Positions 2,886 to 46,472 of a stretch of DNA of 64,000 nt are shown one piece after another. The notes beneath the pieces were generated by a model that did not search any database, was not told the DNA's origin, and was given only the letters and a program-made list of their open reading frames with translations. Origin of the DNA: Halarcobacter sp. (lineage in GTDB: Bacteria; Campylobacterota; Campylobacteria; Campylobacterales; Arcobacteraceae). Numbering within the stretch: position 1 is the stretch's first letter; each line of letters opens with the position of its first letter. The stretch is taken from NCBI GenBank assembly GCA_963676565.1, contig OY781089.1, forward strand, positions 96,001-160,000, read 5' to 3'. The position numbers and the translations under genes were made by a program.

Positions 2886-2939
2886 ATCTTACACGAGAAT
2901 TATAGCCTGAATTTAGCGATTGCGTAGCATTAACGTAGC
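2886..2939 (-). promoter_or_regulatory. Promoter with four GCTA direct repeats (11-bp period) and -10 TAAGAT
   Basis: TAGC on + at 2903, 2914, 2925 and 2936. TAAGAT (2891-2886) lies 11 nt past the last repeat. Confidence 0.7.
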
Positions 2940-3031: not shown

Positions 3032-4924
3032 ATGAAAACATATAACTACACATTTTTCAATAACAACTTAACTGATTTAATTGATTATAGTATATTTAAA
3101 GATAAAGAAAATGTTCTAATTCAAATATTTTCTGGTCATGATTCAAGCACATTGGAGTTAATTACAAAAACAGTAATGGATAATATTCCACAGGCAGTAT
3201 GTTTAGGGACAACTACCGATGGAGAGATATGTGAATCAAAAATCTCTACACTTAAAACAATTATATCAATTTCAATTTTTGATAATACATATTTAAAAGC
3301 TTATTATATGAAAGGGGATGACGCATTTAATATAGGATATGAGATTGCACAAAAAGTTATCACCGATAATACAAAGTTAATAATCACTTTTACCGATGGA
3401 ACTGGGACAAATGCTGAAGAGTATTTGAAAGGTATAGAAAAATATGATAATTCTATAATGGTATGTGGTGGTATGGCAGGAGATAATGGAGTATTTAAAC
3501 AAACCTTTATCTCTTTAGGAAAGCAAATCTATCCTAAAGGGTATATAGCAGTTTCACTTAACTCAGATATATTAAAAGTAACAAACGCGAGAAAGTTTGA
3601 TTGGGTTCCAATAGGTTTAGAGCATACAATAGATGAAGTTGATGGAAATAGAATTTATAAAATCTCGGGGATGAGTCCTTCTGAGTTTTATAAAAAATAT
3701 TTAGGTGAGAGTGTTGCGCAAACAGAGTTTCCTTTAATAGTTGAAAGAAATGGGATACCAACAGCAAGAGCAGTACTTGAACAGCACAGAGATGGAAGTT
3801 TAAGTTGTGGAGGAAATTTAAGAAAAGGTGATATAGTTAGACTTGGTTTTGGGGATGCAGAATCTATAATGAATAATCCACTTAGTGCTTTAGATACAAG
3901 TTTTGATCATCCAATTGAAACTTTTTTCTTATATTCTTGTATGGCAAGAAGAAGGTATTTAAGAGAATTAATAAAACTTGAAACACAACCTTTTGCAGTT
4001 ATTGCTCCAACTTCTGGATTTTTTACTTATGCAGAGTTTTTCCATAGAGATGGTCATAATGAATTATTAAATCAAACATTAACAGTAGTAGCATTAAGTG
4101 AACATGATAAAAAAGTTAATGCATTGGAAATTTATCCAGAGAAGAAAACAAAATCAAAAAAAGATGCTGCCTTTGCAAGAACTTTAAGATCTCTTACTCA
4201 CTTAGTACAAAAAAGTACAGATGATTATCAAGACCAATCAAAAAGTTTAAAGGAATCAGAACTTTATGCACAAAACCTGCTAACGTCACAAAAACAATTT
4301 TTAAAACATGCAGTTCATGAAACAAATACACCACTTTCAATAATAATGGCAAACATTGAATTATATGAAATGGAAAATGGTAAAAATCAATACTTATCAA
4401 ATATTGAAGTAGCTATGAAAAATCTTTTTTCTATATATGATGATTTAAGTTATTTAGTAAAAAAAGATCAAATAGATTACCCTGAACATAAAATTGATTT
4501 TAAAGATTTTGTTAGAAGTAGAGTTGAGTTTTTTAACCAAGTTGCAACTAAAGTAAAATCAAAATTTGTTTTTAAAGCACCAAAAGAACCTATGGTTTTA
4601 CATTTTAATGAATCTAAACTACAAAGAATAATTGATAACAATCTTACAAATGCCATAAAATACACTTATGAAAATGAAGATATTTATGTAACATTAAAAA
4701 AAGAAGGAACTCACTTTAAACTTATGGTTTCAAGCCATTCAAAAAAAATCCAAGATCCAGACAAAATCTTTAAAGAATATTATAGAGAAGAGAAATCAAA
4801 AGATGGATTTGGATTGGGATTAAATTTAGTAAAAAGAATTTGTGATGAAGAGGGTGTTGAAATATATTTAGAATCTAACGAATATTTCACATCATTTGTT
4901 TATCTATTTAAAGGGGAAAGATGA
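3032..4924 (+). CDS. Cytoplasmic FIST-domain sensor histidine kinase
   Basis: FIST N/C motifs (GTTTDGEI, GGMAGD, YSCMARR, GFFTYAE), H-box HETNTPL, NNLTNAIKY and GFGLGL. No transmembrane segment seen. Confidence 0.88.
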   Translation: MKTYNYTFFNNNLTDLIDYSIFKDKENVLIQIFSGHDSSTLELITKTVMDNIPQAVCLGTTTDGEICESKISTLKTIISISIFDNTYLKAYYMKGDDAFNIGYEIAQKVITDNTKLIITFTDGTGTNAEEYLKGIEKYDNSIMVCGGMAGDNGVFKQTFISLGKQIYPKGYIAVSLNSDILKVTNARKFDWVPIGLEHTIDEVDGNRIYKISGMSPSEFYKKYLGESVAQTEFPLIVERNGIPTARAVLEQHRDGSLSCGGNLRKGDIVRLGFGDAESIMNNPLSALDTSFDHPIETFFLYSCMARRRYLRELIKLETQPFAVIAPTSGFFTYAEFFHRDGHNELLNQTLTVVALSEHDKKVNALEIYPEKKTKSKKDAAFARTLRSLTHLVQKSTDDYQDQSKSLKESELYAQNLLTSQKQFLKHAVHETNTPLSIIMANIELYEMENGKNQYLSNIEVAMKNLFSIYDDLSYLVKKDQIDYPEHKIDFKDFVRSRVEFFNQVATKVKSKFVFKAPKEPMVLHFNESKLQRIIDNNLTNAIKYTYENEDIYVTLKKEGTHFKLMVSSHSKKIQDPDKIFKEYYREEKSKDGFGLGLNLVKRICDEEGVEIYLESNEYFTSFVYLFKGER

Positions 4925-5583
4925 AAATTTTATTATTAGAAGATGATATTATGCTAAATGAGGCAATAACTCAATATCTTAGAACAGTAGGTCACTCTGT
5001 TCAATCTGTAAAAGATGGAGATGAGTGTCTAAAAAAATTAGATGAAGAAAAATTTGACCTTCTTGTTTTTGATATTAATGTTCCAAGTATTGATGGCCTT
5101 ACTATTTTAGAAGATTTACATAAAAAGAAAAGAATGGTACCAACTATTTTTATTTCTGCACTTATAGATATTGAAGATATCTCAAGGGCCTTTGATATTG
5201 GATGTCATGATTATTTAAAAAAACCATTTCACTTAAAAGAATTAAATCTTAGAATTGAAAAAATTCTAAAAACAAGAACTGCACCAATGAACCATAAAAG
5301 ATTATCAAAATCATACAGTTTTGATAGTGAAAGTATGACATTATATTTTAACAACGAACCACACATCTTACCCAAAAGACAACTTCAAATTATAGAACTA
5401 CTTACAAATAATAGAAGTTTAGTTTGTAACTATGATATGTTTAGGGATTACGTTTGGAATGACGACTTTATTGATAATGCAACAATTAGAGCAGAGGTAA
5501 ATAGAGTTAAAAAAGTTTTAAAAGAGGATTTTATTGTAAATGTTAGAGGTATTGGTTATATGGTTGAAAGACCTAGTTCTTAA
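4921..5583 (+). CDS. OmpR-family DNA-binding response regulator
   Basis: LLEDD, FDINVP and KPF receiver motifs plus a winged-helix C-terminus (NVRGIGY). ATGA overlap with the kinase. Confidence 0.92.
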   Translation: MKILLLEDDIMLNEAITQYLRTVGHSVQSVKDGDECLKKLDEEKFDLLVFDINVPSIDGLTILEDLHKKKRMVPTIFISALIDIEDISRAFDIGCHDYLKKPFHLKELNLRIEKILKTRTAPMNHKRLSKSYSFDSESMTLYFNNEPHILPKRQLQIIELLTNNRSLVCNYDMFRDYVWNDDFIDNATIRAEVNRVKKVLKEDFIVNVRGIGYMVERPSS

Positions 5584-24357: not shown

Positions 24358-25259
24358 AAATTTTATTTTTAGCAATAATATTTTTTAATTCACTTTTTGC
24401 CTTTGAATATAAGCTAAAGCCAGAAAAGCTAGATGAAAATAGCTACTATTTTTATGGAAAAGAGGAGTATTTTTCAAAGGAAAATGGTGGAGATATTGCA
24501 AACACTGCTTTTATAATCACTAAAAATTCTGTTATAGTAATAGATACAGGAACAACAGTTGATTATGCAAATGCTATGAAAAAAGAGATTTCAAAGCTTA
24601 CTAAAAATCCTATAAATTTTGTAATAAATACACACCACCATCCTGATCATTTTTTAGGAAATAAAGCCTTTAAAGATGCTAAAATTTATGCAACAGAGCA
24701 TACAATTGAAGATATAAAATTAAATGGTGAAAAATATGTTTCAAATATGGTAAACCTAATAGGTGAAGCTGCTTATTCAACTAGAGCTAAAGTTCCAAAT
24801 AAATTACTTACAACAAAAAAACTAGTCTTAGATGGGTATGAATTAGATATTTTATACTTAGATGGTCATACAAAAAGTGATATAGCTATACTAGATAATA
24901 AAACAAAAATACTCTATGCTTCTGATTTAGTTTTTAACCACAGAGCCCTAGCAACACCCCATGCAAATTTAAAAAAGTGGATTTTGGCATTAAAAGAATT
25001 AAAAAAACTTGATTTTAAAACTTTAGTTCCAGGGCATGGAAAAGTGACTTTCTCAAAAAATGTTATTGATAAAGATATCAGATACTTAAAGTTTTTGGAT
25101 AAAACATTGAAAGAAGCTATAGAAAATGGACTTGATACCTTTGAAATTTTGGAACAAGAAATTCCAGAGGATATTAAAAATTATTCTATGTTTGAAGAAG
25201 AGTATGAAAGAAGTATTATAAATCTATACAAAAAGTATGAACTGCAACTCTCTTATTAA
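24354..25259 (+). CDS. Quinoprotein relay system zinc metallohydrolase (MBL fold)
   Basis: NGGDIAN, THHHPDHFLGN, GHT..D and VPGHG motifs; directly after the SoxYZ-like gene. Confidence 0.85.
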   Translation: MKILFLAIIFFNSLFAFEYKLKPEKLDENSYYFYGKEEYFSKENGGDIANTAFIITKNSVIVIDTGTTVDYANAMKKEISKLTKNPINFVINTHHHPDHFLGNKAFKDAKIYATEHTIEDIKLNGEKYVSNMVNLIGEAAYSTRAKVPNKLLTTKKLVLDGYELDILYLDGHTKSDIAILDNKTKILYASDLVFNHRALATPHANLKKWILALKELKKLDFKTLVPGHGKVTFSKNVIDKDIRYLKFLDKTLKEAIENGLDTFEILEQEIPEDIKNYSMFEEEYERSIINLYKKYELQLSY

Positions 25260-43594: not shown

Positions 43595-45196
43595 ATGGAA
43601 ACAACACTATTAATAATATTTTTATCCCTTGCCCTAGCAACAGTATTAAATTTGATTTTAAAAAAATTATCAATATCACATATAATTGGTTATATATTAA
43701 CTGGTGCAATTATGGCACCAATTTTTAATATAGGGCCTCATAATGATGTACTTTTATTAATAGCAGAGTTTGGTATTGTATTTTTAATGTTTACAATTGG
43801 ATTAGAGATGCCAATTGAAAAACTAAAAAAGATGAAAGAGCTTTTATTTCTTAATGGCTCACTTCAAGTTGGTATTAGTGCAATCATAATCTTTACAATC
43901 TCAAAATTTATATTTTCAATTGATACAAATTCATCAATTATAATTGCCCTAGCTTTTTCACTTTCATCAACAGCAATCGTTTTAAGTTACTTAAAACAAT
44001 CAAAAGATATTTACACTCCATATGGTGAAGCTTCAACTGCAATTTTAGTTTTCCAAGATTTAGCAGTAATTCCAATACTTCTTTTAATCTCATTTTTATC
44101 AAATGAGACATTAAGTATGAGTGAGATAATTCTAAAAACAGTTTTATCTGCTGTGATAATTATAGTATTTATGTTTACAATAGGTAAAAAAGCCTCAACA
44201 TGGCTATTACAATTTTCATCAAATAGTAGACTTGAAGAGTTATTTTTAGGCTCTGTAATGTCAATTTTATTTGGGGCTTCTATTTTAGCTCATTATTTAG
44301 GGTTTACTTATTCATTAGGAGCATTTATAGCTGGGATGATTATTGCCGAAACAAAATTTCATATAAAGGTTGAATCAGATATTGCTTCCTATAAAGATTT
44401 ACTACTAGGAACTTTTTTCTTTTCAGTTGGTACAAAAATAGATGCAAGTTTTTTAATTAGTAATATACATTATGTATTTTTAGTATTTATTTCAGTAATG
44501 CTTATTAAAGCCTTCGTGATTTATGCCATAATCAAAAGAAAATTAAACAAAAGTGATTCTATAAAATCAGCTTTAGCCTTATGTCAAGTTGGTGAATTTT
44601 CCTTTGCAGTTTTTGCCTTAGCTAGTGCAGATGGATTATTAGAAAATGATATGGCAAAATTTTTAATACTAGTTACAACTTTATCTATGATTTTAACACC
44701 TTTTATTGTTAATAATATCTATAAGTTAGCTTCATATTTTGTTGTAGAATTTTATGAATCAGATAAAATCACGCCAATTAATAAAAAAGATCATATAGTT
44801 ATTTGTGGTTACTCTATGCTTGGAAGAATTATTGCTATGCAGTTAAATGAAAAAGGCAAACCCTTTGTAATAATTTCAGATAATTTAAAACATGTATTAT
44901 TAGCAAGAAAAAATGGTTACATGGCTTATTTTGGACATATTGAAAAATTACCAGTTTTAGAATCACTTAAAGTTGATGAGGCACAATCTATTATTGTAGC
45001 TTTATCAAATTTAAAGGAAAAAAGATTAATTTGTGAAGCAATTTTAAACTTTAAAGCAGATTCAAAACTAATTGTAAAAATTGACTCTTTAGATGAAAAA
45101 AAAGAATTAAGGGATTTAAATATAGATCAATTTGTTCATTCTCAACTTGAAACTGCAAAACTAATTGTTGATAAAGCTTTAGATATACAAAAATAA
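43595..45196 (+). CDS. CPA2/KefC-like cation:proton antiporter with TrkA-N domain
   Basis: LSSTAIV, LVFQDLA, QVGEFSF and ICGYSMLG. Confidence 0.9.
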   Translation: METTLLIIFLSLALATVLNLILKKLSISHIIGYILTGAIMAPIFNIGPHNDVLLLIAEFGIVFLMFTIGLEMPIEKLKKMKELLFLNGSLQVGISAIIIFTISKFIFSIDTNSSIIIALAFSLSSTAIVLSYLKQSKDIYTPYGEASTAILVFQDLAVIPILLLISFLSNETLSMSEIILKTVLSAVIIIVFMFTIGKKASTWLLQFSSNSRLEELFLGSVMSILFGASILAHYLGFTYSLGAFIAGMIIAETKFHIKVESDIASYKDLLLGTFFFSVGTKIDASFLISNIHYVFLVFISVMLIKAFVIYAIIKRKLNKSDSIKSALALCQVGEFSFAVFALASADGLLENDMAKFLILVTTLSMILTPFIVNNIYKLASYFVVEFYESDKITPINKKDHIVICGYSMLGRIIAMQLNEKGKPFVIISDNLKHVLLARKNGYMAYFGHIEKLPVLESLKVDEAQSIIVALSNLKEKRLICEAILNFKADSKLIVKIDSLDEKKELRDLNIDQFVHSQLETAKLIVDKALDIQK

Positions 45197-45200
45197 GAGT

Positions 45201-45230
45201 AAAAAAAAAGAGCAAATTAATTTGCTCTTT
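45201..45230 (-). terminator. Intrinsic terminator (strong on minus strand, probably bidirectional)
   Basis: AAAGAGCAAA-TTAA-TTTGCTC followed by T9 on the minus strand. Confidence 0.8.
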
Positions 45231-45262
45231 TCTCTACTATGAAGGACGTTTAATTAGTAGGT
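45201..45262 (-). ncRNA. Candidate ~60-nt small regulatory RNA with anti-SD loop
   Basis: Upstream GCTA-N7-GCTA-N11-TATAAT promoter, CUACUA/UAGUAG hairpin with an UCCUU loop, and a terminator with U9. No start codon. Confidence 0.62.
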
Positions 45263-45268
45263 GAAATA

Positions 45269-45300
45269 ATTATAATAAAGCATCATAGCAAAACAGTAGC
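45269..45300 (-). promoter_or_regulatory. Promoter GCTA-N7-GCTA-N11-TATAAT
   Basis: TAGC on + at 45286 and 45297; attata at 45269-45274. Confidence 0.7.
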
Positions 45301-45377
45301 ATTTAAAAGAAATTTAACAATTTTTAATAGCTTTTTCAATAGAATTACAAAATTTAACCAAAAAAGAGACACTTATC

Positions 45378-46472
45378 TTGTATTCCAAAGAGCTTAATTC
45401 AATAAAAAAATCAAATCGTTATAGAAAAAGAGAAGTCTATGATGTAAACTTAATTGACCTTGCATCAAACGATTACCTTGGATTATCAGTAAAAAAAGAG
45501 CTTTTCGAAAATGCATATAAAAGAGTTTTAAATGAAAAATATTCTTCTCCAAAAGCATCTATGCTTGTAAATGGATACTCAAAAATTCATAAAGATTTTG
45601 AAGATGCTTTAAAAAAAGCCAATAATTTTGAAGATGCATTAGTTGTAGGAAGTGGTTTTTTAGCAAACCTTTCTATGATAGAAGCACTTGTAAGAAAAGG
45701 TGATGTTTTATTTCTTGATGAAGATTACCACGCAAGTGGAATGTTAGCAAGTAAATTATTAGATGAGAAACAACTTGTTATTTTTAAACATAATGACCAC
45801 AAAGATTTAGATGAAAAAATCAATTCAAGCATAGTAAAGGGTCGAAAAATAATCGCCATTGAAGGTGTTTATTCTATGGGTGGAGATTTAGCTTCAAAAG
45901 AGATTTTTGATATTGCCCAAAAACAAAATGCCTTACTAATTGTAGATGAAGCGCACTCTTCTGGGGTTTTAGGTGATAACCTTCTTGGTATTTTTAGTCA
46001 CTATAAAATCAAACCACAAAATAACCATATTAAAATGGGTACCTTAGGAAAAGCCTATGGAAGCTATGGTGCATACATTTTAGCATCAAATGAGATTATT
46101 GAATTTTTACTAAATCGTGCAAAGGCAGTAATTTATACAACTGCCCCATCGCTATTTGATATTGCTTTAGGGCATGAGGCTTTAAATTTTATTTTAGAAA
46201 ATACTAATTTATTGAAAAAAAGAATTAAGTCCAATTTACAAGTAATAAATGATATTTTAGGTATAAATTCAGATAGTTTAATTATTCCAATTGAAATTGC
46301 TGATAATAAAAAAGTTATTGAAATTCAAAGTCAATTGAAAGAAAAAGGCTATTTAGTTGGTGCAATCAGGCAACCAACAGTTAAAAGTGCAATTATTAGA
46401 CTTATTGCAAAAATTGATATTAGTAGTGATGAACTTACAAAAGTTTGTACTTTAATTAAGGAGTTAAAATGA
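45378..46472 (+). CDS. bioF: 8-amino-7-oxononanoate synthase
   Basis: ASNDYLGL, SGFLAN, EGVYSMGGD, VDEAHS, GTLGKAYG and AIRQPTV. Confidence 0.88.
   Translation: MYSKELNSIKKSNRYRKREVYDVNLIDLASNDYLGLSVKKELFENAYKRVLNEKYSSPKASMLVNGYSKIHKDFEDALKKANNFEDALVVGSGFLANLSMIEALVRKGDVLFLDEDYHASGMLASKLLDEKQLVIFKHNDHKDLDEKINSSIVKGRKIIAIEGVYSMGGDLASKEIFDIAQKQNALLIVDEAHSSGVLGDNLLGIFSHYKIKPQNNHIKMGTLGKAYGSYGAYILASNEIIEFLLNRAKAVIYTTAPSLFDIALGHEALNFILENTNLLKKRIKSNLQVINDILGINSDSLIIPIEIADNKKVIEIQSQLKEKGYLVGAIRQPTVKSAIIRLIAKIDISSDELTKVCTLIKELK

Follow-up and report, generated by a model that had tools for sequence, protein, structure and literature searches.

The window analysed here is a 64,000-nucleotide stretch of Halarcobacter DNA. 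Within it, a short minus-strand unit comprising a promoter, a predicted small RNA (sRNA) and a terminator lies between two plus-strand genes, encoding a KefB/C-like antiporter (kefB) and a bioF-like synthase, with the PQQ island ending some 20 kb away (position 25259). The features of the locus are:

45297..45301, minus strand: distal TGCTA box, at about -39 to -35, a predicted half-site for an OmpR-family regulator
45286..45290, minus strand: proximal TGCTA box, at about -28 to -24, repeating with an 11-bp period
45269..45274, minus strand: TATAAT, a sigma70 -10 hexamer, 11 nt past the proximal box
45201..45262, minus strand: predicted 62-nt sRNA, with +1 put at A45262, 6 nt after the -10
45234..45260, minus strand: 5' stem-loop, CUACUA/UAGUAG closing a 15-nt loop (predicted fold)
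45238..45249, minus strand: seed region with the anti-Shine-Dalgarno UCCUUCA, predicted to pair with the doxX start region
45201..45232, minus strand: intrinsic terminator with a U9 tail (45209-45201)
43595..45196, plus strand: KefB/C-like CPA2 potassium antiporter, the convergent neighbour in 20 of 23 loci
45378..46472, plus strand: bioF-like 8-amino-7-oxononanoate synthase, the divergent neighbour in 22 of 23 loci

The promoter, TGCTA-N6-TGCTA-N11-TATAAT, shares its architecture with genes of the island. The first-pass annotation had placed GCTA at 45300-45297 and 45289-45286 on the minus strand, separated by N7 and followed by N11 and TATAAT at 45274-45269; these positions are exact, and each GCTA is preceded by a T. 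The RNA sequence that it proposed is equally exact, running for 62 nt from A45262 to the U9 run, and is predicted to fold as described into the CUACUA/UAGUAG stem, a loop with UCCUU and the terminator. AUG and GUG are absent, as had been noted, and a single UUG lies in the terminator arm; the sRNA has its own promoter and its own terminator without a coding frame. A small peptide was considered and rejected, the 4-codon plus-strand frame being broken or extended in 4 of 23 loci.

Several observations bear on the direction of transcription. A covariance model of the sRNA scores 92 bits on the minus strand versus 29.5 on the plus strand and finds one copy in the genome, and a terminator scan calls the hairpin on the minus strand only. 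The first-pass annotation had noted that the U9 tail faces a direction with no reading frame to terminate. In this genome, 93 gene pairs of the same orientation have a perfect hairpin, and the sRNA locus is the only one of them with a reverse-strand U tail of at least 8. The sRNA is very probably transcribed from the minus strand. Three raw RNA runs, not from the host organism, gave no reads on the sRNA, and one contig set of uncertain kind gave scattered pieces.

The unit is conserved across the genus, with sRNA matches in 22 of 24 same-genus (Halarcobacter-like) genomes (DNA search, E < 1e-22), a near-invariant loop and intact boxes, the two elements whose conservation the first-pass annotation had made decisive. 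A scan of the wider collection gave 18 matches, of which 12 are true (six labelled Halarcobacter, the rest Arcobacter or unclassified Campylobacterales); the other six were discarded as short chance similarities in unrelated taxa. The distal TGCTA box shows no variation in 21 of 21 aligned genus sequences, the proximal box is TGCAA in one genome, and the T, A and final T of TATAAT are invariant, while the spacer from the boxes to the -10 drifts freely. Within the RNA, the 5' 29 nt, which lie outside the terminator and the boxes, are near-invariant; of the 29 alignment columns that never vary, 27 belong to the 5' domain, and the seed is near-invariant in 22 aligned sequences. The terminator varies in sequence and length among the genus loci with its pairing kept: counted on an alignment fitted to the covariance model, 7 of 9 pairs are changed on both sides, in 33 cells, and none of 500 shuffles is as high on cells. 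The whole fold (6-bp stem, 15-nt loop, terminator) has a predicted energy of -17.1 kcal/mol with a z of -5.5, a value owed mostly to the terminator. Since the 5' stem never varies (none of its six pairs changes across 21 distinct sequences, with no covariation), its pairing stands as a prediction that covariation does not prove, and the exposure of the seed in the 15-nt loop is likewise predicted.

These patterns can be set against a reading in which there is no functional RNA, the locus being a kefB terminator with a regulator site for bioF, or a leader or attenuator of DUF502-clc genes. The hairpin does begin 5 nt past the kefB stop, can work on the plus strand and may also end kefB there (with a U4 tail); bioF is the most constant neighbour; and a DUF502 gene follows in the sRNA direction in six genomes (G013, G181, G180, G178, G112 and G027). 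However, neither a terminator nor a regulator site covers the near-invariant 29 nt, and the long U tail faces the sRNA direction. Boxes and terminator are also kept without the neighbours: in G007 the unit lies beside neither kefB nor bioF, and in G001 and G013 it is present without kefB. Promoter, body and terminator move as one block, independent of what flanks them. A leader, moreover, cannot serve a downstream gene in the 20 loci that converge on kefB. We regard this reading as very improbable, and the sRNA of this locus is very probably real. G020 retains only a promoter remnant followed by unrelated sequence (L026, G020:C18, near 392340), with a nearby frame that we take from its sequence to be transposase-like, and no sRNA match was obtained in G021 (94% complete, 430 contigs). 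Two other ideas were rejected by inspection. For a CsrA sponge, the GGA would be on the plus strand, which has no promoter and no long U tail; for an inverted-repeat bioF operator, what lies between the arms is invariant, with a length varying from 15 to 17.

By its sequence the RNA is predicted to be a trans-acting base-pairing sRNA of the anti-Shine-Dalgarno kind, a kind already known. The first-pass annotation had suggested this class with targets whose 5'UTRs resemble UGAAGGACGUUU; no start region of this genome has a perfect match to that pattern or contains the perfect 10-mer complement. A conserved complementary site was found at doxX. Within this genome, ranking 2961 start regions did not by itself outperform shuffled seeds: the best value was -19.6 kcal/mol, and 12 shuffled seeds reached -18.4 to -24.6. 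The DoxX-family gene doxX (G000:C1:2022429-2022848) was drawn from this genome's top list, in which 5 of 7 candidates lost pairing in relatives; EamA, Fe-ADH, DctP, NuoA and CTI were rejected as targets, with pairing lost in 1 to 5 relatives with orthologues. Using the g1 seed, 16 of 18 genus orthologues of doxX rank in the top 5% when set against the 2961 start regions of this genome, and 14 of them reach the top 1.2%, whereas none of 23 orthologues from genus g11 reaches the top 5% with that seed. The mean, which excludes this genome and its closest relative, is -15.5 kcal/mol versus -9.5 +/- 1.4 for 500 shuffled seeds, none of which is as low.

The doxX pairing uses two non-homologous sites, UAUGAAGGA over the ribosome-binding site and AUGAGGACGUU over the start codon, and G002 has both. 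This genome lacks the AUGAGGACGUU site, which therefore played no part in the selection of doxX. Eleven orthologues begin Met-Arg; all use AGG as codon 2, and codon 3, where it encodes Thr, is ACG in 9 of 10. Among 81 conserved columns of doxX these are the only G/C-ending codons that are fixed, although the orthologues share ancestry and the fixed codons may trace to one event. Other Arg columns are AGA and other Thr columns ACA or ACT; genome-wide use of AGG and ACG is 9.7% and 2.5%, and synonymous identity elsewhere in doxX is only 0.55 (median). When the doxX start is co-folded with the whole sRNA, the energy is -10.8 to -12.7 kcal/mol in 5 of 5 cases tested. There are exceptions: doxX in G015 shows no pairing (49.9th percentile), that in G009 is weak (7.5), and the G004 copy, at 54-56% identity, may be a paralogue. 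In G020, where the sRNA is lost, doxX was also not found.

Computationally, then, doxX carries an sRNA-complementary translation-start site that is conserved across the genus, and from these comparisons it is probably a direct target. The sRNA might nonetheless be real and act on other mRNAs, or bind a protein, with the doxX match incidental. In favour of this, five of 22 sRNA-bearing relatives gave no doxX match, and the 5' motif UACUAAUU is the part common to genera that include g3, g7, g41 and g10, with different or absent seeds. Against this are the genus-specific complementarity at two separate doxX sites, the two rare codons fixed exactly under the seed, and the poor ranks elsewhere, with 18 of 20 orthologue groups (at least three distinct leaders each) at a median percentile of 32 or worse. 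We consider this reading improbable. With doxX retained as the target, the outcome of pairing would be repression, the sRNA probably blocking translation of doxX, a gene for a small membrane protein.

A weaker second candidate is an NADPH-dependent FMN reductase, for which 9 of 13 orthologues fall in the top 5%. DoxX proteins and such FMN reductases often belong to quinone and electrophile stress responses, and a literature search on the two in that setting gave no usable support. A genus search for TATGAAGGA before ATG, covering 150 of 289 matches (30 loci and 80 regions examined), yielded no further gene recurrent in more than three genomes.

The distribution of the promoter code was considered at the level of the window and the genome. 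GCTA-N7-GCTA occurs nine times in the window against 0.68 expected, and none of 100 shuffles reaches nine. Genome-wide, 16 of 19 TGCTA-N6-TGCTA pairs are intergenic (the intergenic share of the genome is 8%), while for other spacings the intergenic count is 0 to 2. In this genome pta and an amino-acid binding protein gene are likewise preceded by the full architecture, as is, with one mismatch, the solute-symporter operon of an acetate uptake and assimilation cluster. Box pairs further precede both DUF485-actP-like operons, frdC, acnB and TRAP genes, where the names actP, acnB and TRAP are our reading of the translations of unscanned genes. The first-pass annotation had placed the sRNA in the alcohol/PQQ/lanthanide regulon. 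Its observation of a shared island promoter architecture stands, but the box is not tied to PQQ-ADH, and the distribution gives no support to a regulon limited to alcohol and PQQ: 10 of 24 genus genomes yielded PQQ-ADH, each of them with the sRNA, against 22 of 24 with an intact-box sRNA. Because 12 of 22 carriers have no PQQ-ADH match (one query) and acetate-uptake and pta promoters bear the box too, the alcohol/lanthanide label is too narrow, and the box belongs to a wider carbon-source network. Two regulators are candidates for reading it:

4921..5583, plus strand: island OmpR-family response regulator, a candidate activator of the sRNA
3032-4924: island kinase with FIST domains, partner of the island regulator
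G000:C1:1348492-1349154, outside the window: acetate-cluster OmpR-family regulator, the second candidate activator

The acetate-cluster regulator sits directly upstream of the acetate cluster and is the closest paralogue of the island regulator (52% identity; next best 36-39%). It is present at 78-92% identity in all 21 box-bearing genomes, and the full architecture is seen in the promoter directly downstream of it at 24 of 24 family loci. The partner kinase of this regulator carries an sCache_2 sensor domain; such domains bind short carboxylates. Five genomes have the acetate regulator (67-85%) with the box at bioF absent.

The same sRNA could instead be driven mainly by the exaC/island regulator, which would make it an arm of an aldehyde/alcohol regulon to which the PQQ/lanthanide genes are a patchy add-on. 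The island-type regulator and kinase pair occurs in 24 of 24 genus genomes, the kinase orthologue usually beside exaC with TGCTA repeats. The pair is often near the sRNA locus, several genomes having the regulator a few kb or less from bioF, and the two regulators have near-identical recognition helices. Other observations point away from this driver. In G034, G073 and G033 the sRNA promoter is intact and the acetate-cluster regulator is the only match found, an island-type regulator being absent from searches that used the acetate regulator as query; a close island-kinase orthologue was also not found in the two of these genomes that were searched. PQQ-ADH is missing from more than half of the carriers, as given above for the query used. 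Finally, 16 of 18 distinct sRNA box pairs lie nearer the acetate class than the exaC/island class, on a score built from 9 distinct acetate boxes without cross-validation. An sRNA driven mainly from the island seems unlikely. Weighing presence and box class against the position of the island pair near the sRNA, we put the acetate-cluster regulator first and allow for cross-talk: these comparisons make it fairly likely to be the main activator, and cross-activation of the sRNA promoter by the island regulator is possible.

Four further observations concern these boxes and regulators. On the minus strand at window positions 2903-2939, four GCTA repeats with an 11-bp period lie upstream of exaC and are kept in genomes without PQQ-ADH; the ORF-finder start of exaC (2967) overruns them, and translation probably begins some 50 codons further downstream. 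At G000:C1:2750521, 2756248, 2758207 and 2767570 (minus strand), four intergenic TGCTA-N6-TGCTA pairs are each followed by a shared motif with CGTTAAGCG; they stand in an aromatic-catabolism-like gene cluster, and the motif is possibly a second regulator site. The acetate cluster itself (G000:C1:1332843-1350718; L079, L142) holds ackA-pta-ackA, two DUF485-symporter pairs and a further symporter; with the adjacent OmpR regulator and sCache_2 kinase it has the look of an acetate regulon, so far undescribed, that extends through the family. Three members of the regulator clade occur in G030, G026 and G203 (L113, L116, L120) and in G113, one of them a few kb from bioF.

Taken together, we lean towards a trans-acting sRNA driven by the acetate regulator, with doxX as its best-supported target and the FMN reductase second. 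A carbon-source signal, probably an acetate-like acid, would lead an OmpR-family regulator, most likely the one beside the acetate cluster, to bind both TGCTA repeats over the -35 position (about -39 to -24); that the signal is an acetate-like carboxylate is what we infer. The bound regulator would drive sigma70 transcription of the 62-nt RNA, ended by its own terminator, so that the sRNA would be switched on together with the acetate uptake and assimilation genes, and the paralogous regulator beside exaC and the PQQ island, when active, may act on it too. The exposed UCCUUCA seed would then mask doxX and a few other mRNAs at the ribosome-binding site or the start codon, so that their translation is blocked or lowered.

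The same locus was surveyed across the family in the region upstream of bioF, in the 30 best-scoring of 37 family genomes. The same promoter, with the same spacing and facing away from bioF, is present at 21 of 30 loci in 10 genera. The transcribed bodies opposite bioF differ by genus; most have a (U)ACUAAUU-like start and a hairpin end. A CCUUCA seed core is also found in g11, g45 and part of g44, and its position shifts, from the 5' loop in g1 to a single-stranded linker in g44, where single-stranded CUCCUUCA or CUCCUCCUCA comes after a short hairpin, and to the terminator loop in g11 and g45, which carries GCGACCUUCA. In g11, the largest genus (44 genomes), which we guess includes Arcobacter butzleri, this loop is kept at 21 of 22 bioF-adjacent loci and its exact 10-mer occurs in 30 of 31 genomes. 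In the 30 loci examined, searching for the perfect 10-mer complement of the g11 loop turned up no start-region site that is conserved, and g11 doxX scored with the g11 seed is no more than suggestive, with 4 of 23 orthologues reaching the top 5%. At the syntenic locus of g3, g7, g41 and g10, no CCUUCA-like seed is evident. As the covariance model built on g1 misses the other genera (0 of 29 family bioF loci detected), homology across genera rests on synteny, promoter and 5' motif. A tentative extension is that most Arcobacteraceae share a single orthologous sRNA gene, with promoter and position fixed, its CCUUCA seed moved between scaffolds, its promoter read by two paralogous regulators (for periplasmic carboxylate and cytoplasmic aldehyde/alcohol signals) and the first codons of its targets co-evolving with the seed; we hold this to be possible but doubtful.

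The sRNA is apparently undescribed so far, as the first-pass annotation had supposed. Rfam gave no matches across the window, and in three loci the best E was 1.3, far under the thresholds; the literature searched on Arcobacter and Halarcobacter small RNAs, which covered few subscription journals, held no description of it and no Arcobacteraceae regulatory sRNA. In the portion consulted, none of the regions in the Arcobacter sp. L table of Stav et al. (PMC6429828) is linked to bioF or kefB, and the words sRNA and ncRNA are absent from the accessible main text of the A. butzleri transcriptome paper (PMC9927503) and of the CemR paper (PMC11334517). The locus gives ready access to post-transcriptional control in a bacterial family with marine, wastewater and food-borne members: it brings a promoter code, two candidate activators and a target site for which a two-base change would serve as a test. 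With it the TGCTA box, first linked to an alcohol island, is placed in a wider carbon-source network, and the family loci form a natural series for seed relocation within an sRNA gene.

As far as the available parts of the cited papers go, four systems are the closest parallels. In CJnc190 of Campylobacter jejuni, from the same phylum, a C/U-rich loop pairs with the ptmG ribosome-binding site and start codon and represses translation, much as is proposed for the seed described here; it involves RNase III processing and an antisense partner (PMC8687705), whereas our sRNA has its own regulator-box promoter and terminator, and no Rfam match links the two, which were compared by description. CJnc230 of C. 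jejuni has a single-stranded anti-Shine-Dalgarno CCUU between stem-loops, as in our sRNA, but is a 98-nt, RpoN-dependent flagellar RNA located 3' of flgE (PMC11187230), in contrast to a sigma70-type promoter beside bioF. The ribosome-binding motif of C. jejuni is given as aAGGa (PMC3847290). On the regulator side, PceP (RR2) of Sulfurospirillum is a Campylobacterota OmpR-family regulator whose CTATW direct repeats overlap the -35, like the TGCTA repeats, although its site is CTATW-N17-CTATW, its regulon is organohalide respiration and the main text mentions no sRNA (PMC7755780). RepG of Helicobacter pylori carries a C/U-rich seed in its terminator loop, like the g11 and g45 versions, but targets a G-repeat, unlike our sRNA, and is reported to have no homologue outside Helicobacter, Arcobacter being among the genomes searched (PMC8295292). 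A RepG-like layout is seen in genus g4, where the syntenic RNA opposite bioF (L128, L132) is about 110 nt with a long C/U-rich loop.
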